DNA of 64,000 nucleotides from Trichoplax sp. H2 (taxonomy: Eukaryota), in the NCBI GenBank assembly GCA_003344405.1, contig NOWV01000016.1, positions 248,001 through 312,000 on the forward strand, read 5' to 3'. Shown here piece by piece: positions 33,629-60,006 of this stretch. Under the pieces are notes generated by a model. That model worked only from the letters and a program-made list of their open reading frames with translations. It made no database searches and was not told the origin of the DNA. How positions within the stretch are numbered: the first letter of the stretch is position 1; each line of letters starts with the position of its first letter. The translations under genes were made by a program, and so were the position numbers.

Positions 33629-36600
33629 TCAAATAGTAGCTTTACAGACGCTATTTAACAATTTTTGTAATTTGCCTTTTTGAGCAGAAATATTGAAACA
33701 ATCCTTTTCAAGTTTTTTACGATTTTGTTCCGAATTGTATAGTTGTTTAGATAATTTACAATTTTCCAAGTATAATTCGGATACTAAGATGTTATTGCGT
33801 TCCGTTTTATTCTCAGCTTCAATAATCTAAATTGAACGAATAGGTAGATAGTAGAAGCATTAGGTTGGTCACTGGTAAGGTAAATATTGAACAGGCATAT
33901 CGATCTAGTTGAGTTAATTAATAGATATTATTAACAAGACTAGTCTTAAACTGTCATACCTGTGCTCGCATCAAACTGATGTGACTTTCCATTGCATCGC
34001 GCGTTTCCTTTAATCTTAGACATAACTCTTCTTTCTCACGGAGTAAGTCACTTTTATCGCGTAAATGTTTCTCGATTTCGCGTTGGAACTCTTGCCGTTG
34101 CATATAACCTCCTGCTGCATAGCTTTCCATTTCTTTCTTTAATTGCAAATAATTGGTTTCCTTATCTAGCAGCTGTAATGAATGATACGATAATAGATAC
34201 CCAGTTCAGTACTGATAAAGAGTTATAGTTATCATAGGTAAGTAAATTAAGCAATAGGTTATCTAGCTAGACTGATAATTTATATAAAAGCTTGCATGTC
34301 ATTAGTTGAAAAATATCAGCTGTGGATATCCTACCTTATTTTTTAAAAGCCCTAATTCTTGCTGTAAAACATCCAGTTGCGCTTTCTCTTCCCGTTCTTT
34401 TTGTTGAATTTTCTCCGATAATTGGGTTACATCTAGTCGATGTAATTGCTTCTCGTTATTTAATTCCTGGACAGCTTGTTGGATCTAACAAAGATAGAAT
34501 CAATATGATTGTGATTAATAACAATGATAATATCCCATTGCTTATGCTATGATTATGGACAAATTTATTTAAAAAGATATTTTTCTCTATTAACCTTATT
34601 ATTGGATTCTTTCATTTCTTTTTCGGATGATTGTAGTTTGTTTTTAAGTAATTCAATTTCATTCTTAGATGCTTCTTGTATAGACGAAATTTGTTCCATA
34701 GATGATGCGTTTTGTTGCAATCTTTGCTCTAGTATTTGCCTTTGAGAGGTAACTTCAACTATTTCCATTCGCAAGGACTGTATAGTAATCTACAGTAATA
34801 CAATCAAGAGTAATATAGAATTTTTTTATTAATCCATTAATAGTCTTACAGGATCAATTCCATTGAAATAATTACTAATTAATCTAGCAATTTACTTACT
34901 TCAGACTTGATGATTTTTTCTCTTACTTCAGTTACTTCCTTTTCACTATTTTGATATTTCATTGTCAGCCGATCCATTTCCATCTGATATGCAGTTGTTT
35001 TTGCTGATTCTTTTTCAAGGCTTTCCTCTTTAGACTAAATAATTGAAGTATTAATTCTTAATCGTCTTATTCTACTATTGAGCACGAGTAAAGTTATGGA
35101 ATAACTAACTATGTAAGCACGGTAATAGATATTACACTATACCTTTTCAATCTCTTTGATGGTCATTTCGAGACTATCAATATTATCTACCAATAACTTA
35201 TTTCGTTCAGATAATTGACGAGTTGATTTTTCCCAATTGGCTTTTTCTCTATAAAATTATAAAATAATTAAAAAAATAATGAAGTCGATATAGAACTATT
35301 TACCTAATAGTATACTATATGAATAATATAGTGAACAAATTATATTGCATGAACTAGAACATATATATCGATAGATATCGACAATTAACTTACAGATAGT
35401 GCTCTTCAATCTTTTCTTGCAATTTTTTGGTACCTTCTTCAGAACTATTACCAACCAATGCTAATTTCTCTTCAAATAAGGCAAGTTTAGTCTCTAATTC
35501 GATATTTTCTTGCTGCATACGATTTAATTCATTTTGCACTTGTGAGCATTGGTTCATTAATGATTCACGTTCCGTATGCATAACTCGCATAATTTCAGCT
35601 TTATCTGCTTGATGTTCATCTTTCATAGTTTGATTGTCTAGCATTAATTTTTTCTTGTCAAGATTTAATTGATCTATTGATTTTTGCAGCTCTTGGCTTT
35701 GATGTGAGATAGCATTGCTTTTAGCCTTTTCCAATTCATCTTTATCACGATAATATTGCTCCATTAATTGTTGTATCTCAGCACGATGTTCTTGTTGCAA
35801 TAATTTTTTCAATTCATCTTTATCATGTCCATGCTGTTTGCGTAAATCTTCCATTTCTCTTTTCCATTTGTTCTCTTTCTCTTGTAATAGTTGTTCAAAT
35901 TTTAATTTCTCTTTATTAATATTATCCATTAATTCTTTTTGGTGTTTCGCTAACTCACTGGATTGATTACGTTCACGTTCTAATTTTATTTTCTCATCCA
36001 AAGTTTGTTTAAATTTAGCTTCCAATTGGCTCTTTTCTAATTCCAAACTATCTTTTTGCCGTTTAAACTCTTCATCTAATTTAATTTTTTCATCCGCTAA
36101 GACACGGCTTAATTCCTTTAAATCCTCTTCATGTTGTTGCTCTAAATCTTGACGTTTCTTTTGAAATAAAGCTTCAAATTCTTCACGTATTTTCTTACCA
36201 TCTTGATTCATTGATTTCTCTAACACCGATTTCTCGTTATTGAAATTTTGCTGTAATTCATTAATTTTCGATTCCAATGATTCTTGATGTTCACTTTCTA
36301 GTTGTTCTTTTAATCGATTTTTTTCACGGGCAAATCGATTCTCTAATTCAAGGCGTTCTTTTTCATAATTTGCTATAACGTCCATTTTTTCTTGATTTTT
36401 TTCCTCTTCTAATTTACTTTTATCAGATATAAAAATTTCTTCTAACTGGATCTTTTCTTGAAGATAGTCTTCTTCAAGATCTTTTCTTTCCTTCTCAAAA
36501 CGTTTCTCCATAGTTTCTTTTTCATCAGCATATGAATCAATAATTTGACTCCTTTCTTGATCGAATTCGTTCTCTAAATTTTCTTTCTCGATCTCGAAAT

Positions 36601-39600
36601 CTTTCCTTTTTTGCATTAATTCTTTCTTATGAGATTTTATTAACTCTTCACTTTCTTTATTTAATGAAGCAATTTCATTTTCTAATTCCTCAATTTTGCT
36701 ATTCAGGTCATTAATTAATTGATTGAGCTCTTCGATATGATGTTGTAATTGCTGCATTTCATCAGAATTACGACTTCTTTCTCCTGCTAATTTTTTTAGG
36801 TCGTCCAATTCACGTGCTAGAGTTTCACGAAGTTTAGCTGTTTCTCGATCATGAGTCTCATAAATTTCAATCTTTTCCTTAGTAAATGCATCATTTATTG
36901 AATTATACTTTTCTTTCCATTCTTCTATATCATTCTTTAAAGCTTCGACCTCTGTTAAAATGGATTCAAGTAGGGATATTACTTACTGTATTCCTACATC
37001 ATTATAGTGCAATCTATGGATTTCAAATATCTACTGCTGGCTATTTCTATCAGATCGTTGCTCACTAATGACAGGGTAGTTGTACTCTTGACAACGAATT
37101 GATGTTACTATTGATTTAAATGTTTTCTCGTACATCAGTTCAATTACATAAGTTTGAATTTGAATGATTGCTACTCAGGGCCAAAACTGCCCATTTGGGT
37201 AATACAGCAAGAAATTATTGACTCTATTGATGAGAAAGATCGATTTGACTACCGCACCACATAGAAATTATGGTTACAATTTGTATTCTAACGCTGAGAT
37301 GATTAAAATTAGATGCTTTGCTCACTTTAGACCTTGGTACTCAATTAAGATTGCCGATTAAGGCAATTTAAATACTAATTAAACTGGATCATCTATCTTG
37401 CAATGTCCTATCAAATTACATTACAAGAATCTATTCTAGTAATCATGCGAAATTGACGGGATAAACTGTTTGTGGTACTTGAATTGTAGTTTGAATTAAA
37501 CATGGTAGATCTAATATGATCGAAAGTACATATATATATTTACTTTATATATGTTAAACTAACATATACATATGTATTTCTTATACAAGCATATTGATTT
37601 ACTTCATATTTATTTATAATTAGCCAAAATTGATTCAATCTATTGTATCGTTGAAGGATAATTAACTTACGTCTTTCAGCTGCACTCGGCTCTCGCTCTT
37701 TCTTCAATTTCTTCAAGACATCCGATTCCGCGCCAGAACTTGTTTCAGAGCTAGATTCAGAATCAGAATCTGATTCGACAGTTCTTCGCTTAACGATTAA
37801 TGGCTTAGCATAATCGGATAAGACGGAGCCAACACGACCTACGCCTCTTCCTCCACCAACTCCACGAGGACCACCACGTCGATTAAATGTATTATTCAAC
37901 TGAGCAATTTGATCCTGATACTTATCACAGCGTGTTGTTAATTCATCGACTTGATCACGTAATTCACGATTTTGTTGCTCTAATTCCCGTAATTCTTGTT
38001 GAGCAAAACTGCTTTGTTGTTTATTCAGATCTTCACGTTGAGCATCAAATTCAGCCAACTAAAAGAGCAAAAATGCAAATAAATAGAAATGATCGATTAA
38101 GCGATGGTATTAAACGCAATAAAATCGGCTACTGATTAGAGTGATAGCGATGGGGAATATATGCATTATAACTTGTAGACTTTGTCCTCATCAACATACC
38201 TTAGAGGATAACTCTGAAGCTGACTCTAATTCCTTGGTTAATCGAAGGATATTTCGCTGAGCATCGAGTAATCTGCCTTGCGTTGATGCTAATTCAGCAC
38301 CTAAACGACTGTTTTCCTACAATGGATGTGATAAAAGGAGATGTTATTCTGCATGTAGGCTTAACTTGAATCAGGATAAAGGAAAAGTTATAATTATCCT
38401 CCAATCCATTATTGTGGATGGTGAGGGATTAAATCGTCTCATTAACCTATCAGTATTCTTATGAATAAAAATGGGATAGCCTGATGTTACTCACTCTGGT
38501 CAAACTATCCCTGATCTTACAAGTAGAGCAAGAAAAGAGTAAATATGATATACTACTAGCTCGCATAATTCAAGACTAAAATTTATTGACGCTCATTTAT
38601 TAAGTGAAGTATTTCATCAAATAATGTTGCTGAAGTGAGAGAGAGAAAGTAATTTAATTTTACTGCCTAGCTTAATTCAAGGATAAGGATTGTTATGCTC
38701 ATTTATCGATAGAATTATCGGATTAAACAGCCATTTAGAAGGGAAAGGGGTGTAATTTAATCCTACTAAATCGTTTAATTTAAGATTGAAAACACGATTG
38801 CTCGTTCTCTTATTCTTTAAAAACATCTAATTAAACCTATCAGCAGCTGCTTAGAAGAGCAGAAGAGTCATTTAATGCAATTCACTGGACTAATCCATAG
38901 CTAAGGATTATTACACTCGATTACGGAATGAAATAATCGAATCAAAGTATCAACAGCCTGTTCGAAAGAGTAATTTGATGCTAGTAACTAGTTTTAATTC
39001 AAACTAAAGGTTTATCGATTTTCAATCACCTAACCAAGTTACTTATTAAAGAAAGAAAAGAAGAGAGGGAGAGATAATTGGATGCTATTTAACCATTCTG
39101 ATACAAAATTAAAAGACTAAATTATTCGGCTGGTTTGTTAACAGAATCTTTCTAATTTTTACTATCTTGTCGTTCTAGCAAAGGCTATTCTTTACCTCTT
39201 CTGAGTCGGCTAATTTATCTTTCAAATTTTGCTCCTCATATCTCTGCTGACCAATAGAATTTTCCATTTTCTGGATCTGTTTGGTAGTCTGTTGATTCCA
39301 TTTCTCTCGTTCGACTTCCATCTCCTTATGTAGTGTTTGTAATCGACTTTGGAATTCTCGTTCGGCATTTCTATTGATTAATCAATTCAAAATTTATTTA
39401 GAATCATAAAGCTTGGACTGACTATTATGTATACGATAAAATTTTAACAATTAAGTATATACAGCGGATAATACGGACTTTAATATATTTTGATGTGTTC
39501 GATCTTGATCAGCGCTTCTTTCTTCTGATTCACGAATTAGCATAGTTTGTTCCTCACCAGCTCTTGCTAAATCACCCTTAAGTCGTTCTTTTTCAGCAAT

Positions 39601-42600
39601 GTGTTCCTCAATGGTAGATCTAGAAGTAGTGAATCAATATAATTATATACTGCTCGTAAATTCCTTTACAATCTTAGAAATTTACAATACTATTTCGATC
39701 GAAGACTGGACTAAAATGACAAGTAAAAGATCATATTAGCACGAGATTATTTTTATGATATCCTTAAAATTAGCATATTACCAACCTAAGGAATCCAACT
39801 TCACTTTTATATACACTTAAAATGGCTTGTGTAACAGCTATTGAAGAAAGATTAAAATTATTTTATGATGGGAAATTCGACTCCTATTACTATCTTATGA
39901 ATAAATTTTTTCATATTTTAAAGGGATCATAGAGATAGAATAGACCGATATGAAAAATCATATTGGCTTAAACTAACGTGGATCTTGACTCGTTTCAAGA
40001 ATAATATGTTCTAATGTTTCGGATAGTTGGCGAATACTAATTTTATTATCGGCATCCATTTCAAAGCTCTATAATTCATAATTTTCAATTAGTAATTTAA
40101 ATTTCATGCGTTAAAGGTTATTGAGATTAATTCAAAGGTCTTAAACCTGAATAACTTCTTGTGCATTAGCTAATCCTTCCTGAGCCAAAATATCACTAAC
40201 GGCTTCAGCCGGAACATAGCTGCAAGTTATACATTATTTTGATGATCATTAATTGTAAACATACAGGAAAATATTGTTTCAGTCGTAACGGAAATTGCAT
40301 ATTTGATTTCATAATAGAAGCGAGTACTAACCCACTATGGTTAGGATCTAACGAACTGAAGAGATCAGCAGTTTGATTAAAGGAATAGGGTGTTGGTACT
40401 CGACTGGTTTGAGAAGTGAGCTCCTCAGGTCCAAGGCGATTAATTGAAGCACGTCTCTGCAAAATTATTACAGCATTAAATCGAATTGAATAACGGCTAA
40501 ATAGATTCTTTTCTTCTTCTAACTGTTATCCTCCAATTACGTAATCTATGACTTAAAAAATGAAATATTAATTTAAATTATAGACCTTGAGCGATGCCGG
40601 TAGACGTAGTGTTTGTGGTGGAGTTCCGGGTAAAGATATCGGAGGAGAATTGGCAAAAGCGCCTAACTCTTTCACGATGGATAACCCATGTAAAAATTCG
40701 TCAAAACTAAGTGTGCCATCTTTATTTTCATCCAGTTCTTCAAAAAGAAAGGATAATTCCTAGGAGTTGAGAGGTATAAGAAAAGATTAGGATTAATAGG
40801 AAGTAGCCTGGAAATATCCTTTCATCTTGAACGGTCGAATAGAATATTAAAATTCTTGATTGAAAGTGCGTTGGTATAAATTAACTGTGCCTAGAAATAC
40901 CTCTTCATTTAAATTTTCCATTCCAATATGTTCGCAAACTGTTTTTAACTCGTGAACGTCAAGAAAACCTGCTTGACCCACATTGACTTCTTCCAAGATT
41001 GCTTTTAATCTTTCCCTTTCCTCTGCTGCTGCGAGTTCATCATCACTTGTGTAAGATCCTGGCTCGATTCGTGTACTATTTAGCGACATATTCCATTGTT
41101 GGTTGGCTGCAGTACTCTATTTCCAATGAAATTACGAACTATTTTACATCAATGCACTAGAAATTTGGCGCTATTTTAAACCAGAGTCTATTTTGCAGTT
41201 GATAACGGCATAAACTAGTCATTATGACGACATTTTAAATTCCTCTAAATTTGGTATAGAACTCCTACTCCACAAACTTACCGGAGCTGGCGATCCCGAT
41301 CTTTTACTATCACTGTAGCTATCAAAATCGTTGTCAGAATAAGATGTATCTGCTTCCGAATCCGGCCTTGATCTTCTTCCATATCGTTTCGCTCTTGTGC
41401 TTAAATGTCGAGTGGTTTCTATATGGATTAATGAAACGCTTAATGAGCCTTACAAAGTCAATTTACTGAAGGTGTCTGTGAACGATACAGTTAGATTCTA
41501 TTTCAAATTAGCCTTCTATAGAAACTTAGGTTACTATAACTATGATCTAGTCTATCATAGGCCAGTTCAATTCAGTTGGCTAGGGTTATATAGGATCATT
41601 TATTACTATGCTTGTGCTATACCATAGATTTATGATCCTATCTTTCAGCTTGATGAGCTCTTTATGTTATCATGTTATTGTACATGCAAATTCAATCCAA
41701 TGAACGTTATGCAGAATCATTTACGTGTATTACTATACTTGTGTTATGTTGTAGATTTATAATACCATCTTTCAACTTTATATAAGTTTTTTAAAATTAT
41801 AATATCCCAAGCGAAGTCTATCCAAATATGAATAAGTATGTATTACTATACTTGTGCTACGCTGTAGATTTATAATGTTATCTTTTAGCTTTAGAAGCTT
41901 TTTAAAAGTTTAAAATCACACGCAAATTCTGTCCAACTATGAGTAAGTGTTTATACGTATTACTATACATGGGGTATGCTGTAGATTATAATACCATCTT
42001 TCAGCCTTATAAGCTTTTTAAAGTATAATATCACTTGCGAATTCTATCCGATTAGCCATATGGAGAAAATCAATCGCTGTGCTTGTAATTAAGCAGATCA
42101 ATGGTAGTAATCTCTACTACTATATTGCATATCTTGTAAATATCCGTATAGTCAAAATCAAAACAATCAAGAATTTTACGGTAATATTCATATTTACTCT
42201 CATCCTAATAAACAGTTTGGATTGACAATAGTCTACTTTGGATTACTTTAATAATAGTATTGCAAAGGAGATTCCATTAATTTAATGATTTATTTATTTA
42301 GGCATAGTGTACAGACAATAAAACAGATAGCAATAATAACTTCTGTTGGACTTGATAGACTTACGTGATTCCGATTCGCTTTCACTAGTATCTGTTTCAG
42401 TAGCGCTTGCAACGCGAGATAAAACTTCTACAAATCCACTTTTAAATTGCTCGAAAGAAATCTAAATATATTATCAGTAAAAGAAATTAGCTAAATGTAT
42501 GATAGTAATTAATAAAATTAGTAAATTGTGGAAATGAAAGAGACTAAAACTGTAAAAATCAGCGACAATCAAGAAATCATAATCAGGTTGAGAATTTACT

Positions 42601-43916
42601 AAGGGATACAATTAATCGATATAGAATTTTTGAAGAAATCATAATCAGGTTAAGAATTAACTATTGCAAACAATTGATCGATATAGAATTCTTTACGTAA
42701 TTGTCTAAGGAAGTAGGCAAATGATAATAATCAAACTTTAAAATTTGGGAATGTTAGAAGCGAAAGAGACTCAATAGTAAAATCTGCGACTTTAATATTA
42801 TTAAGAACTATGGAAGGCGATCAATAGATATAAAGTTCTTTTACTTCTTGCCACGGCTACTCAAGAATGGGCATATATTTAATAACAAATGGAAGCCTTT
42901 TGATGTGAACATTAAATATGCAACAACAGATCAAAGTCTTACTAGGTTCGCTAATTTTACTATTGTTGACGACTAGATATGAAAAGCGATGGATAAGTAT
43001 AAAATTCTTTTGCTTTTCACCGAGGTTACTCGAGAAAGGGTAGTCAATTTTATGAGCTAAGAAAGTTTCTGATCTAAATATTAAATAGGCCACAACAGAT
43101 ATAAGGCATATTCTGTTTGCTATTCTTGATCATATAAAGAACTAATTATGAAAGGCAACGGATAAATATAAGATTCTTTTACTTCTCACAATGGCCACTC
43201 AAGAAAGAGCAATAATTTTAATGACAAAATGAAAATTTCTGATTTTCTTCCAACACTCAATATACTACAATACGTATAAGCTCCGTTTTGTTATACAAAT
43301 TATATACGTCGAATTTTTAAGCTATCTTGAGGCTGTATCATGATCAATTTGATGGAAAAATGAACACTTTTGATTTCACTACCAACGCTTAATGTGCTAT
43401 AAATTATAATGGATAGAAGCTCTATTATTCTAATTAAGTCGAATTTTTAAGTTCTTATGACGACGATGTATTATGATCAATTTCGTGAAAAAAATGAACA
43501 CTAGATGTACTGTAATGGGTATAAATTCTGCCATCTTGATTAAGCCGACTTTTTAAGCTATATTAGAGCTGTATTATGATATATTTCATAGAAAAAATAA
43601 GCACTTTTGAATATACTTTAGGGATTCAATATGCTATAACAAGTATGAAATCGGCTTAATCTTTCAAGTTATTATTTTTCCTATTTTGAAGCTATATCTT
43701 ACCAAGAACAGCCGAAAATCAACAATGATAATGGATACTTACATGACCAGAACTACCTCGAGGCACAAGGACATTAACAATTTGCGGTGCTTGTTCGTCT
43801 AGTTGCAGTTTGTGGCATAGCGATATCAATTCTTCTTTCGTTAAAAAGCCATCGCCATCATGATCACAGGTCATAAAGACTTCGTGTAACTGGGCTTCAT
43901 AAGCTTCTTCATCCAT
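33629..43916 (-). CDS. NIN: Ninein / ninein-like centrosomal protein (N-terminal EF-hands plus long coiled coil), 20 exons, ~1504 aa
   Basis: Exons (5'->3') 43916-43743, 42461-42365, 41418-41282, 41116-40901, 40759-40586, 40456-40332, 40219-40147, 40068-39978, 39837-39786, 39619-39479, 39370-39196, 38316-38200, 38058-37671, 36951-35394, 35248-35143, 35034-34900, 34789-34595, 34484-34335, 34172-33960, 33826-33629 splice in frame (4515 nt). Ninein hallmarks: N-terminal MDEEAYEAQLHEVF..DHDGDGFLTKEEL..LC..L.L, ISFEQFKSG, KRYGRRS, LDENKDGTLSFDEF, one very large coiled-coil exon, and C-terminal ELYLEN. May be co-orthologous to vertebrate NIN and NINL. Confidence 0.9.
38495..38515 (-). CDS. Candidate 21-nt symmetric microexon of ninein (IRDSLTR)
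   Basis: actcttttcttgctctacttgtaag|ATCAGGGATAGTTTGACCAGA|gtgagt lies within a phase-0 intron and preserves frame. Confidence 0.5.
41600..42050. repeat. Intronic ~115-bp tandem repeat, 4 copies (ninein intron 2)
   Basis: TATTACTAT.C.TG.G.TA....TAGATTTAT.AT...ATCTTT.A.CTT at about 41601, 41728, 41841 and 41958. Confidence 0.75.
42570..43625. repeat. Cluster of short degenerate intronic tandem repeats (ninein intron 1)
   Basis: AAGAAATCATAATCAGGTT.AGAATT x2; ATA.ATATAA..TTCTTTT.CTT...GG..ACTC.AGAA x3; GTCGAATTTTTAAG...TGTAT.ATGATCAATTT x3. Confidence 0.6.
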
Positions 43917-45442: not shown

Positions 45443-48400
45443 AGGATGAAATAGAATAGTATATTACTCTAGTCCATTAGTTTTCATTCTTTAAGTGCTT
45501 TAGCAAATTTCATAATTCTGATGATGATGGTAAAATCTCGATTGAATTTGAATCACTCTAGCCATGCAAGAGCGATCAACCGTTGCAAGAGCTATGCAAA
45601 GTTTACTTATCCTGATTTATATGTTTAGATATTCATCTTTGAACTCTTTTATATACAGTCTTAGTCAAATAGCAGCGGCAAGACGCTAATCATAACAAAC
45701 TATCAAGATTGCCCCAAAAGACAGAATACTTCCGGCAAAGTAGATTATAAATACAATCTTAGCCTATTTCAACTGTTTTAGAATTTTTGTAAGGGTTGGC
45801 AAGTGGAAAATGATGGAGCTAAGTAAATCTGTGGGGAGCAATGTTGCAAATGGGTAGCTGGATAGGTTTAAAGTGCTTACTCTTGAGTACGATATTTTCT
45901 ACAAATAAAAGTACCGCGAACGTGGAAGTACCTAAAAGACATCCTTGGATTGCATTAGGGTTTATTATGGAGATTAGAATCTGTTATAGACAAGGTAGAA
46001 AGATTGCCACTGTGATAGTGAATTTGGAGGTAGAAAGAAGAGATTTTGTTACTGCTAAAATGATGTTGGATATCATAAAACGGAACCCATCAGTATAACT
46101 AGAGTAAAGCTTAGGCAAAGTCTACACTTCCTTTTTTTAACTTTATCTATCAAATTGCAACTACGGAGGATGGAAGAAGAAGTAACTCTTTCTTGATTTA
46201 CAAGATATAGAACGATTGTGAATATGAAATTTGAAATAATGAAAGGATTTATATCAATCGATTGCTTGCAATCGGAAATCATCACTTATTTTAACATAGT
46301 TGTACTTTAATAAAGTGACAGAAGAATGAATCATTAAAATCCATTTGGTGAAAGAGAAGAAATGGAAGTAATGGCATTCCAATTTTTCCAGTTGAGAATA
46401 TGAAAATGTAGCCTTTTGAGGCATTAACCAGGACAATAGAATAAGTATCTAAATTGATTAGAATATGCTTAATGATGAACTATTAGCTGGAACATGTAGG
46501 AAAAGATTGCCTTGACCATCCATGCTAGGCGTATATAATTTTTATAGCCGTCAAAAGAAGTAGGGTATTGGAAGTAGAAGCATCGATCATGACAGGAATT
46601 AAAAGAATATTTCCATTCATCTTTGATTAGATAATCGTTCTAGTTCCCCTTTCCCGATCGCTGTGTCAGGCTATTTTAATTTTTCCTATCTTAGCCGCGA
46701 CCTATGTACCCACTGGATATAAAAGTATTTATCGCATCGTAGCTTATGAATACATTTTAGGGTTAGCGTCCTTAGCTGGTATAACTAGATACTCGTTCCC
46801 GATTATGTAAGCTGATAAAGATGATGTACCGATTGCTGATCCATCTCTAGCTTAATCTATCCACACTTACTTCTAGCCACAGAAAGGATTAACCCTTAAC
46901 TTGCGGGAAATATTCTCTTTTTTTGCTGCCTAGGCCAATTCAAGTTGAAGTTGATAATTTGATTCGTTGTTCACTCAACGAGTAGAATATTCTAATGGCT
47001 TGTCGAGAAGAAGAATTGAATAGATTTAATGTATAGAAGTCAATGTTAGAATCATTATTTGTTCAATGTCAATACAATGTAGAGACAATCGGATAGCAAT
47101 GTCTTTCTCCTTCCATCGTCTCCAACTCGCTAGTTTGTAACCACTTTTCTTGCCTACTATGTTGTATCCTTCATTTCATCGACTGTAGGGTATAAGTAGA
47201 GCGGTGTATTTAGCTCACCACAGTAGACAAGATTGAAAATGGAAGCTGCAATCCGCGATCTGGGTTAACGCCTTGGATGATTACTATAGTAACGGTGGTT
47301 AGGGACGCTGACTCATCGATTGCAAGATGGAAGAAGAGAAAAGAGATAGGATAAAACATACAATTCATCAATAATTCAATCTTAATTAATAACCATAATC
47401 ATCATTGTCATTAGAATAATAATTATCATGTTATGCTAATCCTGTGGATGCTGGATCACATGATTTGCCCACTTTCTTCAATAGATGAAATCAATTCAAC
47501 AGTTGTTGATGCCATGATCAACAGCCTATTAATTCAAGCTGGAACTAGAGAAATAATATGCAGGACAATGCTCTAGCTTGGCTCAAGGTTGTTTATTCAA
47601 AAATCATTCTATCAAGACGATAAAGAACATGGTCAAGCTGTCATCATACAATACATTCAATACTATTTTTCAACCTGTCAATTATTTCAATTCTTATTAT
47701 GGTAAAAATAACATGAAATCAAATCGACTTTTTTAGCTTGTTATATGATTGAATTGATTATATTAATTATGCTTGGATATAGGATAATTGGTTGATAAAA
47801 ATACAATTTGTATTAGGTTACGATAACTTGAATACGGAATACAACAATAAAGAGGGAAGATGGCGGTAGTCATGTTATTCGCTATGAACGGGGTTATACT
47901 ATATAGTGGCAGCTCATTCAATTAGAGTAGCATCTATTTTCGTCAATGATAGCGATAAATAAGCCAACGTTTTTTTCCCTTAATCGCTCCTAAATGCTTT
48001 CAATTAAAGTATAATTTTAATCGGAATGACCCATTTGAAATATGAATGGTATGTTTGTTATGGATTGGTATTTCAGAACAACTTATTATTAAATCGAATA
48101 TTTCATACTCTATTATGCCTATAAAATGCAAAGTCTGAATGGAAATAAAATAAGATGAATAGGGTGGACTATAGACATTCCATAATACTATAGTATATGA
48201 ATGGAATAAGTTTCTAACTCTAGTCTTATTAATATAGAATAACATATCATTTGACAGTATAAGGCCATCAATTGGCTAAAGAGAGAGCCATAAACTACTA
48301 GAAATTTTTTACCTAAAAATTTCCAGTAGTTCATGGAAGGGGCCATGATTAATTCAATTGAATATGATTTCATCTATGATGACTAGTCCTAACTATGAAT

Positions 48401-48639: not shown

Positions 48640-50420
48640 ATTAATGCAAATTAACATAGTCTGATCCATCAATTACCAATTCTAACTATTAATGACATAT
48701 TTGTTGTTTATACATATGTGGTCTCTATATGAAAACAATCTTTTAGGCTTTTCATATTCTATTTACTACGTATATTTTTAAATACTGCCACAACTACTCT
48801 TGTGACACAAGAAACAACACACTGCTTATAATAAACTTTGCTTTAATCCGCAGAACTACTTCCCTAGCCTACAGTATAGTAACTGGAATCCTTGCGAAGT
48901 ACTAACTCGCTTAACACAATACGCGTATACGATATATATCTATCATACAACTTAGACTTAACCTGAATCACTTTTTATTGATCACACTCCTTCCAATATA
49001 CTCTTTCAGTGGTTATAAACATATTTCGATAATAAACATCTTGTTACGATTGAATTATGAAATACGGACATTCGAGGTAATAAACAATTTCATACGTAAA
49101 TCTACTTCGACCATAAGCCCTGTCAAGCTCCTATGTTCTCGATACTTACTTGTACCATAATAACTTAGGTTATTACTAACAATAACAATTCCTAAAGTAG
49201 TGGTTCATACTTCTTAAAAGTTCAAAACAAACTGTTATCATAAACTACACATCCATATCAAAGCTATTTTGATGACTGTGACAATACATAGCTCGAAAGA
49301 GAAGGAAATAATATGCGTTTCATGTCCTATTAAATTTTACATAATTCTAATCATACATATGTGGCCAATACTTACTCATATTTTTATATATACGAGTATA
49401 TGTTATTACTACTTAATAACAAGTTGTTAATGACAACTCTCCTTTGGACTTTCCATTCTCTATTTATTACGCATATTTTAAAATGCGTAGCTCGAATGGA
49501 AAGAAAATTATATATATTTCATATGCTCTTTAGCCTTACCCAACTCTAACCATGAATGACATATTTGTTCTTTATACGTAAGTGATCAATACTTAATAAC
49601 AAGTTGTTATGAAAACACTCTTTTGAACTTTTCATACTCTATTCATTACGAATATTTTTAAATGCATAGTTTGAATGGAAAGGAAATGATGTACGTTTCA
49701 TATGCTATTTAGTTTTACTCAATTCTAATTATGAATGACATATTTGTTGTTTGTACATATGTGGTCAGTACTTACATGCGTATATATATATATATATATA
49801 TATTATTACTACTCAATAACAAGTTGTTAATGATAACAGTCCTTAGGACTTTCTATTCTCTATTTACCACGTATGTTTAAAATGCGTAGCTGAAATGGAA
49901 AGAAAATTATATACTGTTATATTTCACGAGCTATTTAGCTTTACCCAGTTTAACTGTGAATGACATGTTTGCTATTTATACATATATATGTATTATATTT
50001 TAAAATGCGTAGCTTGTATGGATAGAGAATTATATATATATTGCATGTGCTATTTAACTTTACCCAATTCTAATCGTGAATGATTTATTTATTATTTATA
50101 TATATATGATCAGTACTTAATTACAAGTTGCAATGAAAACTTCCTTTTGTGCTTTTCATTCTCTATTTATTACGTATATTTTAAAATGCATAATTTGAAT
50201 GGAAGAAAGTAATACACGATTCATATGCTATGCTTTACTTTGGCTTTACATAATTCCATCGATGAATGACATATTTGTTGTTTATACCTACGTGTGTTCA
50301 GTGCTTACTCATGCATATGTTATGGTCAACGTCGATAATCATAATATTCCTTTAAACTTTTCAATCTCTATTTATTATATTTTAAAAAGCATAGTTCGAA
50401 TGAAAAGATTACTAGCACTA
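48640..50420. repeat. Degenerate ~170-240-bp tandem repeat array, ~7 copies
   Basis: ATGAATGACATATTTGTT, CTTAATAACAAGTTG, CATTCTCTATTTA.TACG.ATATTTTAAAATGC.TAG and GAATGGAAAG recur many times. Confidence 0.8.
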
Positions 50421-53400
50421 CATCAATTATTTACTCGTCAATGCAATATAAGATAATTTGATCCATAATTACCAACTCTAGCTCTGAATAGCATGACTAC
50501 CATTCAGGCCTGATAAACTGAGAATAAATTTCTCTTTGTCACGATACTTGTACTGTAACGAGTATTATTACATACAGTATGTAGATTCTTAGTAAATATA
50601 AAACTAATTCATTTTCGGGTAAGGGCAAATAAATTAGTTAGATATCTAATCCATAAGAGAGTTTAAAGATCAAGTCGTGTTTTGATCATGGTTAATCTCG
50701 TGTTATATGCGTGCTCTAACCCATCTTTATCAACGATTTTGTCGCCGGGCCAATACAAGAAGCTTTACGAGGACTACCTTGTCAAGAATTTATTTATAGT
50801 ATATGAATGAATATAATACTCATATTTCTAAGAATTTGCATTATCAATGAATGATATGTTATGTTAATTATTTTGATCGATTAGTGCTTATGAAATGGTC
50901 CTATTACAATAATTGTTAACATCTAAACATAGGTTTGTTGCTCTGTATCCATATATATTCCAATTTCTACTTGATTGTTCAATCATTATTTATGATATTA
51001 ACTTTCTGATTGCTCCTAGCTGTGATGTTCGTTGAATAACTTGTGAAAAATTGTTATTTCTGTCTAAATTTCAATATACTAGATGGTAATCTTGCCTTTT
51101 ATGATGTGCTTAGAATATTTTATGCACGTCACTAAGCAAGATTACATTCATGCGTAGGCATTAAATAGCAATATCACGTGCACCATCAAATACTTGGCAT
51201 TTATTGGAAATTAGAGTAATAAAGTTTCGTTACCTTGCATATCAAAACGTATTCCAATTTCTAAAATATCTGGTAAGGATGTCATTGCTTTCGTAAGCTG
51301 CGTTACGAATATCAGAGTCGGCTAGCTAATATCAGAAAAATGTTTGTCGTAAAAAGTAGCTATTATATCGATCTAAGCTTGGAATCTTACATATTCTAAT
51401 TAAGCTATAAAAACTTGAAAGCATTTAAATATCCACAATAATGTCGTAGCTGTATGGGCATCGTTCAAATTAATTTAAATTTAATTTATTAGAGTTGAAA
51501 AAAAGGCTAGGTCCAACTAAAATAATTTAAGTATTAAGATTATCGTTATTAGATAAGGTAGAATTTCTGTTATTGATTTAAATGTAAAATGCGCTCTATT
51601 TTCTAAAGTAAAATGTTATCTTATGGAGTTGGCTAATGGTATTATTACAAATTTTGATACCAATATTGATCGAGAATGGACGTAGAATAATACCTACTGT
51701 TTTAGAAATATTAAAAATATTTAATCCAATTTTCAATTACGATATCAGGTATAAAATCGTTTTATGAATTTCGTCCCAAAATAATCGATGTGAAAGGGTC
51801 AATTCTATTGATTGGAAATTGACCTTATAAAGTTTAGCATTTCATCTGCATCAAATTCTAATCATGTTATCGGCGTTGGGTTGATTCATGAATTTAATTG
51901 TAGATAAATTAACGTCATAACACTAGAATAAATAAATTAAAATTGCGTTTCCATAAATTGATTAGTTTATAATTGCATTAAAATTTTACTATTGTTTTTA
52001 ATTACAAAGCGTAATAATTATAGAAATCAAAGAATGTAATTTACGTAATCTTACTTATAAATTTTCATCTAAGCTCATGTACGTTAAAACTTACGATCAT
52101 ATTAATGCAGTTGTTGTAAAGCCTACACGCATTTTCTTAATAATTTTCGTAAAATATTTATCTCTCAGTCAATAAAAGATGGCAATAAATACAGTATTGC
52201 TTTTAGTTCACTAGTTACTAATGTAATTGAGACATAAGTTCTTTATTTTATCTAAGAAATGATCATATTGCTATTTCAGTTCTATCGCACTTTAAATTTT
52301 TGATCCCGTATCTGATAGCACATTTCCGTTCAGTAAATAGTGTTTAAGCTTATTTAGATATCACCAATATTTCCTTATTACATGCTAGATAAGATTCGCT
52401 GCTTAATTAAATTAAAGCTAGATTTAATTCTTTTCCAATCGTTTTTTCGTACGCGAATAGCGATATAGAGAATACTATCTAATTATAGTTCTAATCACGT
52501 TAAGGCATTAATTGTAGCTCATATCGTAAATACTGACGTAGATTTAATAAAATTAGGATAACAAAAAATCACTGCTTGATTTGTTAAAAAATTAAATCAT
52601 TTAGTATTGCTTATCAATTTACTTTGCTATTGATTACATAAAATGCCGACGGTATGTTATGATTATATTATCGGCATAGTAACGGTTTTCTTGTAACTAG
52701 ACAAAAATATAAGTCTCGGCTTTGATTGCTGTTAATCTATGCCTATAGCTATATCAAACTCACGTTTTATTCATCAAAGCTACTAACTATGATAACAGGC
52801 GGGGTCTCTGTCATCATTATCGTTGTATCTCTGTCATTAACGCATTAGTCTTGCAAATAAAAGTAGAAAAATCCACCTACTTAAGCTATTGATAATTTTA
52901 TCATTATTTTAGTAAGGTTTTCTGTCTATCAAATAATATAGTTTTATTATTTTGAAGCAAAAATAATCCATAGTAATACTTTTGAATCGATTAACTGTAC
53001 GCAGTGCTATTTCCTGGAATGATGCGATCAAACTATTTATAGCCCAGAGACAGAAGGATTAGACCGAATTGTTTCCATACTTATAATCATAATTAATTAG
53101 AATCAATAGGCTCACATATTATATAACAGAATAGGAAATAACATCGCTCTCAGGACAGAAAGTAACAGCATTTAATAAATAAATAATAATCCTACTATTA
53201 GTTTATATAGACACTTAGCTATAGCAGTGCCTCATAGCCAATTTATGAATACCGTTGATAGATTGATTTGTTTCTGCTTTAGGAAATAAAGAGTTAGAGC
53301 TACAATTTATCAATTGTTTTCCATATGCTATTGGTTACAATGTCAGTAAATAGTAAGGAGTTTGGGAAATGAAAAACTTATTACGAGAAAGTCTAGAGAG

Positions 53401-55376
53401 GATAATAACACTGACATCAGTAATCTGAAAAAAGATTGCACGTTAGCTGTCAGGAACTAAGAATTGTTTATTTAATTATTCAGACGTAGCTCATACAGAT
53501 TTCAATATATGGAACGCAAAATAAGTCTCGATATATATAAATATAATAAGCAATAGTGATAATAAGAATGAGACTTGTATAGCAATTAATTCCGCTAGTA
53601 AGCATCACTGTTTCAATCTGATATGAAGTTACGATCTAGTTAAAGTTCCTTGGCAAAATAATCATGAATTATCGTATCAAGCTAATAACTACAATATGAT
53701 GAAAAGAGCAACAATAGGAGCTAGGGAGTAAATATATCAAATAATCTCGTCTTATGAAATATCAGATCGTATGGGGCAGTTCATGTTATCAACACAGAAT
53801 AATTCTACCGTTTCTTTAAATTTCTGATTAAAATATCGGTAATTTTATCAATTACAAACAGGATAATGATGAAATCTAACTTATAATAATTAAAAAATAT
53901 AACTAAATTTAAAGGTTTAGCTGTAATTGTTAAAGATAGATACGAGTAGGTATTTGCAAATCTTTCGTGTTTTAATATCGAAGAAAAGTTCAAGAACGGT
54001 CAGCTATAATCATTTGTTGATATTTATAATTTACTTTTCGGGTCAATGAACTCAGAAAACACTAAATTGCTCAGTTGTATAATTTTAATACAATCTTGGG
54101 CGTTTTAACTCCTTTCTTGCAATTAAATTTCTATTTGCTATCTAGATTAGAATAATTTATTTTATAAAATTTAAAGCGGAGAACGCCTTTCATTAAGATT
54201 AGAATTTTAGTTACCCTGCATGCAAGCAAGTAATGGTTTGTTGGACTAAAATTAAAAGCTAATAAGATCTTTCAGTCGAATAATTGTTTAACTGTTTACT
54301 TGTGGCATTCATACTCGTATTCTAAACTTGAGTGATCATATCGATCAGTATCACAAGTTACGACTACTATGCCGTATAGTAACAAGATTGCTAAATTTGG
54401 CTTAATAAACTTGAGGAAAAGTCTGGGTTGAATAGAAAGCAGATTTTATACCTATATAGTACTGCTGCTTTAAAATTAGACCGTATTAGCTAAAAATAAT
54501 TTTAAAGTAATAGTAAACCTATTTTAAAATTCTACATATTGTAAAATAGGCTTCAAAATCGCGCAAATAGTTAAAAATGTGATTTTTTTAGTAAAGATAA
54601 GTACGGCAATAATTATACTGTAGTGGATCTGAACTTTATTCCGTTGCTTAGTAAGACATGATTGTCGTGACATGTTTCGAAATAGGTAATAAATCTTAGT
54701 GAGATTAGTTTGCATGCTCAATAGTGGTACACTTTTAACCTTTACTGTATTATTTTGTGCAGTGAGAAATAATAATTGATTAACACCAATTATCAAATAA
54801 ATCAAAATAATAGATTATATAATTGAATGCCGCTAATGAAACAGCATTCATGACTATATTTGATGATCTAGATAAGCTAGGAAAGATTAATATAACTTAG
54901 TAAAATTCTTCATTAATCATAAATAGTGTCTACTATACAATACCATGACAACTCAAACTATCAATCATTAAAACTATAGAAATAGATTAATTATGTGTAA
55001 TGATTAATGATTTATGTATATTTATAAGCGTGATCTAGGATAGCTTACATCAAAAGAGTAATCTAACATTGAATTATTGAATTCTATGCAGATGCAGTTC
55101 AGGGCTATACGTGCAGGATAAAAAAACTATTTTTATTTTATTTTCATGTTTATGGGCTACTGCTTACCAAAGATGAGCATATCCATATCTTTTCGATGCT
55201 GCTTACTTAATTTAACATGGAAGTAAGATAAGATGTGAAATGATGTAGTCTGAAGTTCGTTTTCGACTTAATTTAGCATAAATTTGTAGCCTTAATTAAA
55301 TTTGATAGCCAAATTCATATGCCGCACAGTCGAATATGGAAAAGAATTATAAAGTAGAATGAAGACAATAATTGTT

Positions 55377-57339
55377 TTAGACAAGTTGGATTGTATCTAA
55401 TCCTGACAGAAATTCTTGAAAACTTAATAATCCGTCATGGTTGCTATCCAATTCTTCAAAGAGTATACGAAAATTCTATTGACAGAAATATAAATATTTG
55501 TATTAATGAACATTTATCTTGGGATCACGATTATATTGATTAATGGAATAAATCATAAATTTTTACTTTAGTTATTCATATTAAGAGAGTGTTAGAAGAT
55601 AAAAAAATTGATCATAAAAGCAAACTACTGAACATATTAGAAAATGAAGGCCAACTATATAGTCAAGGGGGTTGATAAAACGCATACTACAATAATTTGG
55701 CATTTAGTTCGTTATCTACCAGTTCGTTTACGAGAAGAAATTTGAAGTTAGTTTTAATTTCTTCTTTTATTGATTTCATTATATACTCAGCACAATACTA
55801 AAGTGGAATAGTAACTGATCTTTGCTACCCTCCGTAACATCTTATTTATTAACGATTACTTAATATCTCGTCTACATGATTAAATTACCTCATTGATGTC
55901 TTTCATACCGAAGCGTTGGCATACATCACGAAATTCATTTAGCTCTAAGCATTGACTTTCATCCGATTTAATTTGTAACCAAACACCTCTTAGAACGTCA
56001 TGTGCTTGAATTTTTGTTATATTGTCGTCCGAGTAAATCAAAATTTCGGAGTCATTGTCGTCATCAGATTCAAAGTTCGTCTGAGTGCTGCTGATGGAGA
56101 CTCTGCTAGAACTTCCTCTCTATTAATAAATAATTATAGAGTAACATTACTTGTTATTATCAATCTAGGGAAAGATTATATTGCGATATTTAAAATAACT
56201 CAATCTTATTTTTACGTTGCACTAAAGATATTGATTTTGTAGTAATTTATTATAAATAGCATTAAATTTAGGGACCTAAATTTATTCAATTCGAAATGTA
56301 TCGAGCTTGTACATATTGAATTAAGGATTTCTATATTATATTTGTATATATAAAATGATATGTACGGGTTATACAGTTTAAGTTCATAAGTTTATTGGCT
56401 GCTGACTGTCTTTACAGCAATCACTCACCAAGTAGACAGAAGGACATAGACTATGTCGTCTTGTCAAGGCTATAAGAAGTAATAATCAAGGATGGGAATA
56501 ATTAATCATCTGTGCCAACAGAATTTTAAATTCTTATATCGAACCCATCCTATCTTTAATATGCTAATAAGAATATATACGATTATATCTATAGATTTCA
56601 AAACCTTTATCCAATAACTCCTTAGTATGGAAATAAGTAATCATCTGCACTTATAGTATTTTGAATTTTTACATGAAATCTATCCTATCTTTAACATACT
56701 AATAAGAATATATTCGTATATATCCATATATATTTTACAACATCTAAATAATAACTCTCTAACTATGGAATTAAGTAATCATCTGCAGTTACAGAATTTT
56801 AGATTCTTACGCAGAATCTCTCTTATCTTTAACATTCTAATAATAGACATATATACTTGTATACTCGTTTATCTATCTATTTCATAGCATCAAAATGATA
56901 ACTCCTTACCCGAGATTGAATCAGTGCTACTAAATTCACTGCATGTACTACATGTAACAGACTGATCATCATTATGAAAGTACTTATGCATTAGTACGCT
57001 GACAAAGGCATCCTGAAATTGTTCATATGTAATCTAGCGAATTATAGAGAGTAAGATATGTCAGTTCTCAAACTGCTGTGAGCTGAAACAGTTTAATTTT
57101 CACTTAAAATATATATTTAACTAAGCGTGAGTATGATGTTTAGTCGAAAATTATAAACGAACTTGCTGATCCGCTGTCGAGAATAATAGACGATCTTCCA
57201 ATTGAGGCCATTGCTGATTGACATCTAGCATTTCGCATAAATGTTGGCATTCTTCAAGACTGATTAATCCATCGTGATCCCGGTCACATTTAGAGAATAA
57301 ATCTTCAAGCATGATTTCTTTTTCTTCTGTTTCAGTCAT
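55377..57339 (-). CDS. Short EF-hand-only ninein paralog (tandem duplicate of ninein exons 1-5), 5 exons, ~223 aa
   Basis: Exons 57339-57163, 57033-56910, 56469-56429, 56119-55889, 55475-55377 splice GT-AG in frame (672 nt including TAA). Intron phases 0,1,0,0 match ninein exons 1-5. Blocks ITYEQFQDAFVSVL vs ISFEQFKSGFVEVL, LELNEFRDVCQRFGMKDINE vs LDVHELKTVCEHIGMENLNEE, and LFEELDSNHDGLLSFQEFLSGL vs LFEELDENKDGTLSFDEFLHGL are clearly homologous. Confidence 0.8.
56500..56905. repeat. Intronic ~130-bp tandem repeat, 3 copies (intron 2 of the EF-hand paralog)
   Basis: TAATCATCTG...AGAATTTT...TATCTTTAA.AT.CTAATAA at about 56503, 56638 and 56777. Confidence 0.7.
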
Positions 57340-60006
57340 ATTGTTAAAATTCTTCAGCAAATAAAGACAAATTAATAATAAATATAATCAATTCCCTTTT
57401 TTATCGTACGTAGCATCTTTTTTGATGGTGTATACTGCAATAGACCATACATGTTCTGATATAATATTTACATAAGTTAATCATGCGCTGGATAAAAAAG
57501 CCAAATGTAATTAAACTAGTAGTAATAATAAAACAGTCAACAAGGTTATCATCACTGCGATAAAGATTATCTTTGTTAAAAACTATCTACTGTATTATTG
57601 CTAAAATTAATAATTAGGGATATTAGCCTATATTCTGTTACATAATTATTAATGCAGCCTGATAATAAAATTGCTATAGTAATATTTATGCATGTCATAG
57701 AAATAAGGAGATATTGCACGTATTGATAACCGGCAACTTTGATTGGTGATATGGTAATTGGTCAATTACTCGTATAATAGATTGATCTAACCATACTTAA
57801 ATTAAGTTAGAGTAGAAATTTATTCAAATTTAAAGGTTATAAAATTGAAAATAGAAGACTATTTTATTTTAATCCTTCACAAATCTTAATCCTATTGCGT
57901 CAGTGTCATCTATTTATGATCAAAGATGTTAGTTATTGATACATAAAGAACAAATAATAAAATTTATAATGATTTAAATTATCAACAATAATATTTCTAT
58001 AAAATCTTGCCCTTATTCAATAACATTCCTTAGTAAATATAATATAATTTGACTCTTTCCATAACTATTAAATGCCAAGCATGTTACTGGAATGAGAGCT
58101 TTTGAGCACCTTTCTTATACTAAAATACTGCATTTTACTTTAATTTCTTCTGAATTATAGCAATAAGTATAGTAGTCAAGATTGTATAACATGAAAAAGG
58201 ATCACTATCAACCATTATTTGTATTGCATAAAATTTGTATACATACGAATAGACATTTTTTTTATAATATTAGACGTTGAAACTTGTATCATTATGTGAA
58301 TTTGACGATAGTTTTACGTTGTCTTTCCTAATTTAAAGTGATCCACTTTTAACACTAAGTCTATCTTAATGTTTTAGTATTTTAGCTAGAGTTTCAGCTA
58401 CAAATGTACTAATATAAGATACGAATGTGGTTCGTAATGCTTGCGATAGCAGCCAATGATACCACTAGTATAAATCGGTGCTAGATTTTTCTTTAATTTT
58501 TCGTTTTGTAATGTTTAAATGCTGTTCTTTATCACTACAGTAACCGTTATTAATCCTACCTATATCAATATGCAACCTGTAATTTAAATTACGATTTTTG
58601 TTGCTTGATATGATTTCGTTCATTAAATGTGTATAGATACTATACTTTTCAATAAATTGCCAGCTACAATAATGCTGCTTTGTAACAATAACTAGTAGTT
58701 AAAATTTTCGCTAAAGTGTAAGTGATTGAATTAATGCCAGCAGTATGAATATTTTAGATAATATTATAGATATGAATTACAGCTAAAACTTGATAGTTAG
58801 ACGATTGAAAATTTTCATTCGGTAATAAACATAACCGTATAAACTGAGATAGGAGGAACAAAGCTTAGTGGTCAAGTATGTACGTGATCAAGTACGTACT
58901 TTCGTTCTTAAATAGTCCCTTGTAGGATAGTTTAAAGCACTTCAAAGCTTGAGTACATTAGTATTTCTTTTCAATCAACAACAGAGATAAAAAAGTAATA
59001 GAATAGATTAAATAGTGAGTTAATCCATTTTATAGTTACGTAGTTTGTTTAAGTAGAATTCGATCGTTGAGTCTTGAGAGTAGTATTAATTACAAAAGAA
59101 TTGCTCCATAGTTATTACGTTCGCTAAGGATGAGGGAATTGAACTTATTATTGTAATATAGCAAAATATCAGCTCGTTATTGAATAAGCAGGGAATGAAA
59201 TGAAGATACAATCTCGCACGTAAGTAATTTCGATATTTGATGAGATTGCACTGATTAAAAATCGATTATTTGGCACTATTGCGGTACGTTTATAAATCAT
59301 TGATAAAATTATATTACTTATTACCAAATTCGAAGTATTTAACATGTAAATTATGTTGTGGGAAGAAATGAAAACTTTGATAATGTCAACGGAATAAGTG
59401 ATAAAAATTATAATGAAAAAAATGAGAATTTTAGTAAATTAGAATTAGAATTTATTCTAACGAAAATCCTGTTTTATTACTTACATTTACCCTTAGACAC
59501 TAGGCCAATATTGAAAAATTTCAACCCTAAAAATGGACACGTCTAGTTGTGATTTGATTTGGCAGGCGCTTGGATTTAATGAAATCAGGGATATGAAATT
59601 GAATTTATATTGTGTTGTATAGTGGTCAACAAAGCGTCGAGGCTTAAACGAGGCGTCTAATGACATGCAGCAATTGACGAATTGAGATTAGATATGGACT
59701 TTTTCTTCATCTCCTTATATGTAAGCTACGGTACTTGTTGACTCTAATCGTGACTTATCGTAGTTTCGCTTAAACGCAATTATTGATTTGGTTTGATAAT
59801 AGCTTTTGATTAATATGTTCGCCTAATCAATCAAGAATAGATTGAATGTCAACAGACGTAATCGATCAAGAGAAATCAATGACCGATTGTCTATAACATA
59901 CTGTATTGTGTACATTGGACTGCCCATCGCGAGTAAAATGCTAGATATGATCTCATGCATTTTATTTATTTTTTTCCACTAGTGATTCACTAATCCCTAA
60001 CGGCGA

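Follow-up and report, generated by a model that had tools for sequence, protein, structure and literature searches.

A transcribed gene of probable ninein ancestry encodes two EF-hand pairs without a coiled coil in Trichoplax sp. H2

A five-exon EF-hand gene upstream of a ninein-family gene

The window analysed here, a stretch of 64,000 nucleotides (nt) from Trichoplax sp. H2 (contig NOWV01000016.1, positions 248,001 to 312,000 of the forward strand), carries on its minus strand a long ninein-family gene and, upstream of it on the same strand, a short EF-hand gene that we call the mini gene. The mini gene comprises five minus-strand coding exons (57339..55377) that join into 672 nt, or 223 codons plus TAA, across introns that all have GT..AG borders and that follow phases 0,1,0,0:

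57163..57351 (minus strand): exon 1, with 12 nt of 5′ untranslated region (UTR) and codons 1-59; acceptor at 57351, ATG at 57339
56910..57033 (minus strand): exon 2, 124 nt, ending in phase 1; encodes the exit helix of EF-hand 2, including the family motif FQDAFVSVL, and the start of the linker
56429..56469 (minus strand): exon 3, 41 nt, a short linker exon (ALTRRHSLCPSVYL)
55889..56119 (minus strand): exon 4, 77 codons; acidic linker, predicted to be disordered, with TNFESDD, followed by a degenerate EF-hand 3
55377..55475 (minus strand): coding part of exon 5, 32 codons and the TAA at 55377-55379

The spliced translation (P0001) is, letter for letter, GenBank RDD45424.1, titled ‘hypothetical protein TrispH2_002628’ (Trichoplax sp. 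H2), and its counterpart in Trichoplax adhaerens (H1), XP_002109983.1 (‘expressed hypothetical protein’, B3RP92), differs from it at residue 219 only (1/223). An earlier note on this DNA had proposed five exons that join into a stop-free protein of ~223 amino acids (aa) with these phases, and the identity of the exon join with the deposited protein bears this out. Given that 7.6% of the codons in the window are stops (window 31% GC), an open frame of 223 codons would be expected by chance with p ~2e-8. Exon 1 holds EF-hand 1 (canonical loop at aa 19-30, nt 57250-57285) together with the first half of EF-hand 2, and by itself matches Pfam EF-hand_1 at E 1.9e-6; exon 5 holds a canonical EF-hand 4 (loop at aa 201-212, nt 55413-55448; Pfam EF-hand_1 E 8.3e-7), and the stop codon lies 11 codons past that loop.

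The mini gene is expressed as its own spliced transcript

Expression was assessed from contigs of four public runs (X1, X4, X5 and X10) placed on window positions 40000-58000. X4 is labelled as RNA, and X1 is DNA-like, with an even depth of ~76-124 in 28 of 30 bins and higher values in two repeat bins; depth in these contig runs cannot rank the mini gene against the long ninein gene. All four junctions of the mini gene were present as spliced contigs, with CT..AC ends on the forward strand, in both X4 and X5 (56469|56910 and 56119|56429 among them), and two of the four were present in X10 (57163|57033 and 55889|55475), as would be seen if the exon joins that the earlier note had offered for checking against RNA are correct. 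No mini splice junction (0/4) occurred in the contigs of the DNA-like X1. Because the junctions occur in the RNA runs and not in X1, the spliced form is RNA and not a retrocopy.

The contigs also extended the transcript on both sides of the coding exons:

59485..59514 (minus strand): 3′ end of a non-coding first exon (5′UTR), 30 nt mapped; the exon extends further upstream
54636..55376 (minus strand): 3′UTR, ~740 nt, as far as the RNA contigs go
55132..55142 (minus strand): two overlapping AATAAA, read through by contigs of X4, X5 and X10 and hence at most a proximal alternative site
54635..54640 (minus strand): AATAAA, the likely distal poly(A) signal; contigs of two studies end at 54636 and 54659, a weak hint

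Loose contig ends at 57351 carried 30 letters in X4 and 231 letters in X5, and the 30-nt consensus of these ends had a unique position in the window at 59485-59514, followed by gtaagt. This non-coding exon ending at 59485 was missed by the earlier note. It contains an in-frame TAG 10 codons ahead of the ATG, with no other ATG between them, and translation is thus assigned to start at 57339. On the 3′ side, a single X5 contig took in exons 3, 4 and 5 and continued to 54636, an X4 contig reached 54659, and X10 contigs covered 54717-55475 (exon 5 and 3′UTR), although the ends of contigs cannot prove the true end of a transcript. The AATAAA previously noted at 55.1 kb does stand there, at 55132-55142, but it does not mark the 3′ end, as RNA of all three runs continues past it; the poly(A) site is more likely to lie near 54.62 kb than near 55.1 kb. 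A 256-nt contig of X10 in the distal 3′UTR (54717-54972) had a depth of 308, compared with 9-28 for the coding exons, which would fit a 3′-biased library combined with the distal poly(A) site, or else an unrelated overlapping transcript.

An alternative minus-strand acceptor at 57102, within intron 1, was used in X4, X5 and X10; the upstream sequence spliced to it, at least 91-255 letters, has no match in the window. The resulting isoform skips exon 1 and has a TAG directly ahead of exon 2, and for these reasons it is unable to encode the full mini protein; its upstream part could stem from a distant promoter or from another gene further upstream, or could reflect a difference in assembly. The mini gene itself is a genuine protein-coding gene with its own transcript.

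Alignments, intron positions and phylogeny point to ninein ancestry

An exhaustive HMMER search with the mini protein returned 325 proteins at E<=1e-3. The top scores belonged to poly-EF-hand proteins that sum many repeats, such as a Phytophthora ‘calmodulin’ cluster matched in 9 stretches, and among the best 150 of the 325 matches there were 19 long proteins matched in exactly two N-terminal stretches. Nine of these long-protein clusters were checked, of which seven were ‘ninein-like’ (turtles, ray, caecilian, toad, snail and sea cucumber), one was ‘uncharacterized’ (brittle star) and one was unnamed. The mini protein was collinear with the ninein-like proteins in alignments, and several residues common to it and the nineins were absent from the other aligned EF-hand proteins: in pair 1, L..[LV]F..CD ahead of loop 1, LC within the exit helix and F[KQ].[AG]FV.[VI]L following EF2; in the linker, a TNFES/ETFEA block; and in pair 2, [IV]W and VC...GM.D around EF3. 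The family order of a degenerate EF3 followed by a canonical EF4, after an acidic linker, is kept as well.

The closest comparison is with the long gene in the same window:

33632..43916 (minus strand): coding range of the long ninein-family gene, from spliced contigs, a stop-free join and tblastn with ninein-like proteins
43743-43916, 42365-42461, 41282-41418, 40901-41116 and 40586-40759 (minus strand): its coding exons 1-5, phases 0,1,0,0
46870..47005 (minus strand): its own 5′ non-coding exon, minimum extent; joint 43921|46870 in X4 and X5, with 136 far-side letters in X5

Ninein-like proteins matched the long gene in tblastn from its N-terminus to the C-terminal family motif at 33808-33632, and in order it has EF pairs 1 and 2 with the KRYGRRS motif between them, a pseudo-EF region, long exons for a coiled coil, and that C-terminal motif. 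The long gene starts at ATG 43916, and 11,461 bp lie between this ATG and the mini stop codon above it; together with the spliced contigs, this distance confirms the earlier placing of a ninein gene with matching phases 11.5 kb downstream on the same strand. For EF pair 1, tblastn within the window gave E 1.6e-6, and 73 of 213 aligned residues (34%) were identical between the two proteins, with 24/65 (37%) in pair 1 and 26/70 in pair 2. Introns 1, 2 and 4 of the two genes agree in alignment column and in phase, and the mini gene ends inside the counterpart of exon 5 of the long gene. Some residues are common only to the mini protein and placozoan nineins, namely FEELD, the Asn at EF4 loop position 3 and I[ST][FY]EQF.

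The linker motif PKYV..K.YGRRS.P, which is present in the long gene and in 17 of 18 aligned NINL rows (P0119 has a variant), is absent from the mini protein, and exon 3 measures 41 nt in the mini gene compared with the 137 nt of the KRYGRRS-bearing exon 3 of the long gene. The reported loss of KRYGRRS is therefore upheld, but its reported replacement by LTRRHSL is less likely, since the mini ALTRRHSL aligns better with TTRHLST at the start of long-gene exon 3 than with KRYGRRS, in a stretch too short to settle the matter.

For phylogenetic analysis, 32 rows and 308 kept columns were used. The mini rows (n=3) were the window protein and two composites of fragments joined with X; the nineins were two placozoan sequences, 18 of the 19 long ninein-like proteins (P0030 was dropped as a near copy of P0026) and the fragment P0127, which was relabelled ninein-like after inspection of its sequence; and the outgroup was eight short EF-hand proteins hand-picked from the HMMER list. 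The mini proteins and nineins were split from the eight other EF-hand proteins with support of 100/98. On the basis of the family signature residues, the shared intron positions and this split, ninein-family ancestry of the mini gene appears well supported, and the description of an intact, ninein-derived, EF-hand-only paralogue agrees with these data and with the collinearity of the alignments. Among the entries of a protein atlas were EF-hand clusters of short chordate proteins and, with a score of 0.88, a cluster named ‘ninein-like protein’; these serve as leads only.

Conservation of the mini gene in diverged sequences

Gene calls from short public contigs provided diverged relatives of the mini gene. 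P0178 matched exon 1 (85% identical); P0180 contained exon 1 (83%), a retained open intron and exon 2; and P0003 and P0179 matched exon 4 at 73% and 72%. Exons 1, 2 and 4 are thus open, at 72-85% identity, in two lineages (P0178 with P0003, and P0180 with P0179), which in the tree are closer to each other than to Trichoplax and which we infer to be other placozoan lineages. The EF1 loop is canonical in these relatives (DQDHDG[FY]INLEE), and where the gene calls read through after exons 1, 2 and 4, donor sites stand at matching places. In exon 4, 45 residues are invariant across three lineages and cluster in the EF3 half, and the acidic linker is variable and contains an indel; judged from the sequences, this pattern of conservation is that of a constrained protein. 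Scans of metagenome contigs with P0001 and with the exon-4 alignment A1 found no relative. Differences between runs and window were considered as a proxy for selection and dropped, as divergence was too low and uneven: 0 differences were seen in the exon 1 and exon 4 pieces, 8 in an 840-nt piece of 3′UTR and exon 5 (X5), and 1/499 (X5) and 1/318 (X4) in intron pieces.

Two predicted EF-hand lobes, each with one calcium site

The two canonical Ca2+ loops of the mini protein, DRDHDGLISLEE (aa 19-30) and DSNHDGLLSFQE (aa 201-212), have D/N/D/G, hydrophobic/E at positions 1, 3, 5, 6, 8 and 12, and the statement that both canonical loops are kept holds for EF1 and EF4 only. EF2 is degenerate (F at position 1 of the loop, Q at position 12), and so is EF3 (K at position 1); both hands are degenerate in the ninein family too. 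Each EF pair thus combines one canonical loop with one degenerate hand, as in the long paralogue, and since loops 1 and 4 are canonical and loops 2 and 3 degenerate, one Ca2+ site per lobe is predicted. Pfam recognized generic EF-hands only in the whole protein (EF-hand_1 E 8.8e-15 and EF-hand_7 E 5.7e-14, both above curated cut-offs).

An AlphaFold2 (AF2) model built from a 26-row alignment contained two helix-loop-helix pairs, at residues 11-82 and 145-220, with 10-residue block means of the predicted local distance difference test (pLDDT) of 60-86, separated by a linker (77-151) that fell below pLDDT 50 and is predicted to be disordered. The model is consistent with a protein in which a disordered acidic linker of ~65 residues connects the two EF-hand pairs of the ninein N-terminus. 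It had no helix beyond residue 220, and the protein ends 11 residues past the EF4 loop; the coiled coil, the pseudo-EF pair and the C-terminal motif (LYVEN...ALQ.TE.RQK.AE) are absent from it. That the protein stops right after EF-hand 4 without a coiled coil, as had been claimed, follows from the position of the TAA. The closest solved folds to the model were centrin, troponin C and calmodulin (Foldseek E 1e-3 to 1e-2), and sequence and fold searches of the PDB returned generic EF-hand proteins only, with no ninein EF-hand structure among them.

Comparison with ninein, other adaptors and calmodulin-like sensors

Dynein adaptors, among them the centrosomal protein ninein, are understood as a head that binds the dynein light intermediate chain (LIC) together with a coiled coil. 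The mini protein resembles NIN and NINL in having two N-terminal EF pairs in the same order and with the same signature residues, connected by an acidic linker with the TNFES/ETFEA block, and it resembles the Trichoplax long ninein gene further in the positions and phases of its introns. It differs from NIN and NINL in its length, 223 aa versus >900-2000 aa, and in lacking KRYGRRS, the pseudo-EF pair, the coiled coil and the C-terminal motif. For want of a coiled coil, it lacks the heavy-chain, dynactin and Spindly-motif contacts. NIN itself is described as having a pseudo-EF pair and a long coiled coil (preprint 10.64898/2026.04.25.720804).

CRACR2a, Rab45/RASEF and RAB11FIP3 each use an EF pair as a hydrophobic cleft for an amphipathic helix (PMC7655957), and in CRACR2a the Ca2+ requirement is met through one canonical loop per pair, a ‘one good, one degenerate’ arrangement like that of the mini protein. 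RASEF (2pmy) was among the weak PDB sequence matches to the mini protein. These adaptors, however, consist of one pair plus a coiled coil and a cargo domain, whereas the mini protein consists of two pairs alone, and the sequence relationship between them is shown for the EF-hand fold only. Calmodulin, centrin and troponin C share with the mini protein four helix-loop-helix units in two lobes and are its best structural matches. Compared with calmodulin-like sensors, the mini protein has canonical loops at only two of four sites and a disordered linker of ~65 residues in place of a short central helix, and the tree separates it from the eight EF-hand proteins sampled.

A second short member of the family, P0066, is found elsewhere in the Trichoplax genome. 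This ‘Ninein-like protein’ (RDD43967.1 / XP_002109140.1; 415 aa, identical in H1 and H2) starts, as annotated, at EF pair 2 without pair 1 and ends a short way into the coiled coil; from exon 4 onward it aligns collinearly with the long gene, over exon 4 it is ~81% identical to it, and in the tree the two group together (98/92). P0066 and the mini protein are therefore both short placozoan family members and form complementary fragments; together they show repeated fragmentation or duplication of the ninein family in placozoans.

The mini gene model is already public, in records whose only family label is ‘EF-hand domain-containing’, and what is new here is an annotation-level insight into a deposited ‘hypothetical protein’. 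A literature search found no paper that names the accessions of the mini gene or protein. Titles and abstract openings on Trichoplax and ninein contained nothing about the mini gene, and the listed titles on ninein paralogues lacking a coiled coil described no head-only form.

Origin and possible functions of the mini gene

It is very probable, in our judgement, that the mini gene is a real, functional gene derived from ninein, and we consider it likely that the evidence as a whole is best explained by a duplicated and expressed gene for two EF-hand pairs that act as a clamp. On this explanation, coding exons 1-5 of a ninein-family gene, its 5′ part, would have been duplicated to give the mini gene, each lobe of the mini protein would form a Ca2+-binding clamp for an amphipathic helix, and the inherited target might be LIC helix 1, which pair 1 binds in human NIN. 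The mini protein could then act as a soluble sensor or competitor at the LIC site, or could have moved to other targets. Because it has no coiled coil, it could grip a helix at most and can neither recruit dynactin nor activate dynein, and its architecture sets it outside the functional class of dynein activating adaptors.

The earlier note had set the mini protein against adaptors in which EF-hand pairs engage the LIC helix and the coiled coil binds dynactin and cargo. This background is correct in outline, except that in human NIN the LIC contact is independent of Ca2+ and is made by EF pair 1 only, as given in PMC7655957 and in preprint 10.64898/2026.04.25.720804. Human NIN 1-87 binds the LIC1 helix with a dissociation constant of ~5.4 µM without Ca2+, and binds no Ca2+ itself, whereas CRACR2a binds LIC1 only with Ca2+ (PMC7655957); in NIN, only EF pair 1 touches the LIC, and the coiled coil makes the contacts with the dynein heavy chain and dynactin (preprint 10.64898/2026.04.25.720804). 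That the mini protein binds the LIC seems to us improbable though still worth entertaining, and a stronger version, in which it is a soluble, Ca2+-loaded module of ninein that occupies LIC helix 1 without recruiting dynactin, seems somewhat less probable still. If that version were true, calcium would tune the availability of dynein to coiled-coil adaptors, and the mini protein would be an endogenous competitor that regulates the choice of dynein adaptor; no regulator of this kind has been described in an animal.

Several points weigh against the clamp explanation or against parts of it. Sequence alone cannot predict which EF-hand pairs bind LIC1, as stated by the authors of PMC7655957, and since human NIN 1-87 binds no Ca2+, control of the LIC contact by Ca2+ is not characteristic of the family. 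With an affinity in the micromolar range, a monomeric head would in any case compete only weakly. The AF2 model had low overall confidence, with a mean pLDDT of 60.1 and a predicted template modelling score (pTM) of 0.35. As to constraint, the H1 and H2 proteins are too close (1/223 residues apart) to be informative, exon 5 of the relatives was not found among the matching gene calls, and the diverged fragments may instead be paralogues in Trichoplax, where P0066 already provides a second ninein-like paralogue. Finally, the free tree places the mini clade outside the placozoan and other nineins (97/92), as sister to all sampled nineins.

The alternative that fares best is a small Ca2+ sensor or buffer that keeps only the EF-hand fold of ninein, has no link to dynein and acts on other targets or on none; we give it close to, though somewhat short of, an even chance. 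It accounts for the two canonical Ca2+ loops and for nearest folds that are generic four-EF-hand sensors, and it is in keeping with the strong divergence from both placozoan nineins (34% identity; branch 1.83), with the lost KRYGRRS linker motif and with the limit on predicting LIC binding from sequence stated in PMC7655957. However, family-specific residues are retained in both pairs beyond the needs of an EF-hand fold.

The mini gene could also be an old paralogue whose split from ninein preceded the divergence of placozoans from other animals and which was lost elsewhere. Such a paralogue would yield the free-tree position of the mini clade outside the group of placozoan nineins and bilaterian ninein-like proteins, and we regard it as unlikely. 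The mini branch is long (1.83) and meets the long outgroup branches at that point, such that the placement may be an artefact; forcing the mini proteins and the placozoan nineins together costs 3.75 log-likelihood units and is not rejected by the approximately unbiased (AU) test (p=0.10). A word-indexed near-length search for mini-type proteins of 122-391 aa outside Trichoplax returned only the mini protein itself; this is weak evidence for a lack of full-length orthologues and speaks against such an old origin. The phylogenetic check put forward in the earlier note therefore came out in part as expected, with the mini proteins and nineins apart from other EF-hand proteins but the mini proteins not nested beside placozoan ninein. 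A placozoan duplication is favoured because of the tandem position beside the long gene and the residues that the mini protein has in common with placozoan nineins only.

We think it very unlikely that the mini gene is a partial duplicate in decay, still transcribed but under relaxed constraint and without a function of its own. It is truncated relative to its parent, ending inside the counterpart of parent exon 5, it evolves fast, and the 57102 acceptor yields transcripts that skip exon 1, all of which a remnant might do; but the frame is intact in H1 and H2, exons 1, 2 and 4 are open in two lineages at 72-85% identity despite the 7.6% frequency of stop codons, the EF-hand parts are the better conserved and the acidic linker is poorly conserved, with the canonical loops kept, and spliced mRNA occurs in three studies. 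That the five exons belong to the ninein transcription unit, as alternative 5′ exons or by read-through, an idea open to them as same-strand exons 11.5 kb upstream and to rare chimeras beyond the reach of the contigs, is extremely improbable, because the exon 5 TAA runs into ~740 nt of UTR within one X5 contig, contigs of the long gene start from its own exon at 46870-47005 (X4 and X5), no joint links the mini exons to the long gene (54.6-57.4 kb to 40-47 kb) in the contigs of any of the four runs, and GenBank annotates two separate genes in two species.

A conserved, expressed gene for the head alone constitutes a natural separation-of-function experiment. Should the head still bind the LIC, a very simple animal would have in it an endogenous inhibitor of dynein, or a calcium switch; if it does not, it would be a clean case of a new calcium sensor arising from partial gene duplication.

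Other features of the window

Between the two ninein-family genes, at 51403-51694, contigs of X4, X5 and X10 set in at 51403, immediately following a plus-strand AG, and up to 255 preceding letters match nothing in the window; the 30-nt loose ends here and at 57102 likewise had no match anywhere in the window. This segment resembles a plus-strand exon spliced to upstream sequence from elsewhere. Also between the two genes, 48414-49615 had ~7-fold higher X1 depth (768 and 684, compared with ~100), broken contigs and a 196-bp skip, and is probably a dispersed repeat or mobile element.

Two further features were recorded:

56492..56843: tandem repeat within intron 2 of the mini gene, with a 135-bp unit, 2.6 copies and 78% matches
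1271-1513 (minus strand): open frame with paired Cys/His spacing

The frame at 1271-1513 resembles LIM zinc-finger domains, and we take it to be, probably, an exon of a LIM-domain gene.

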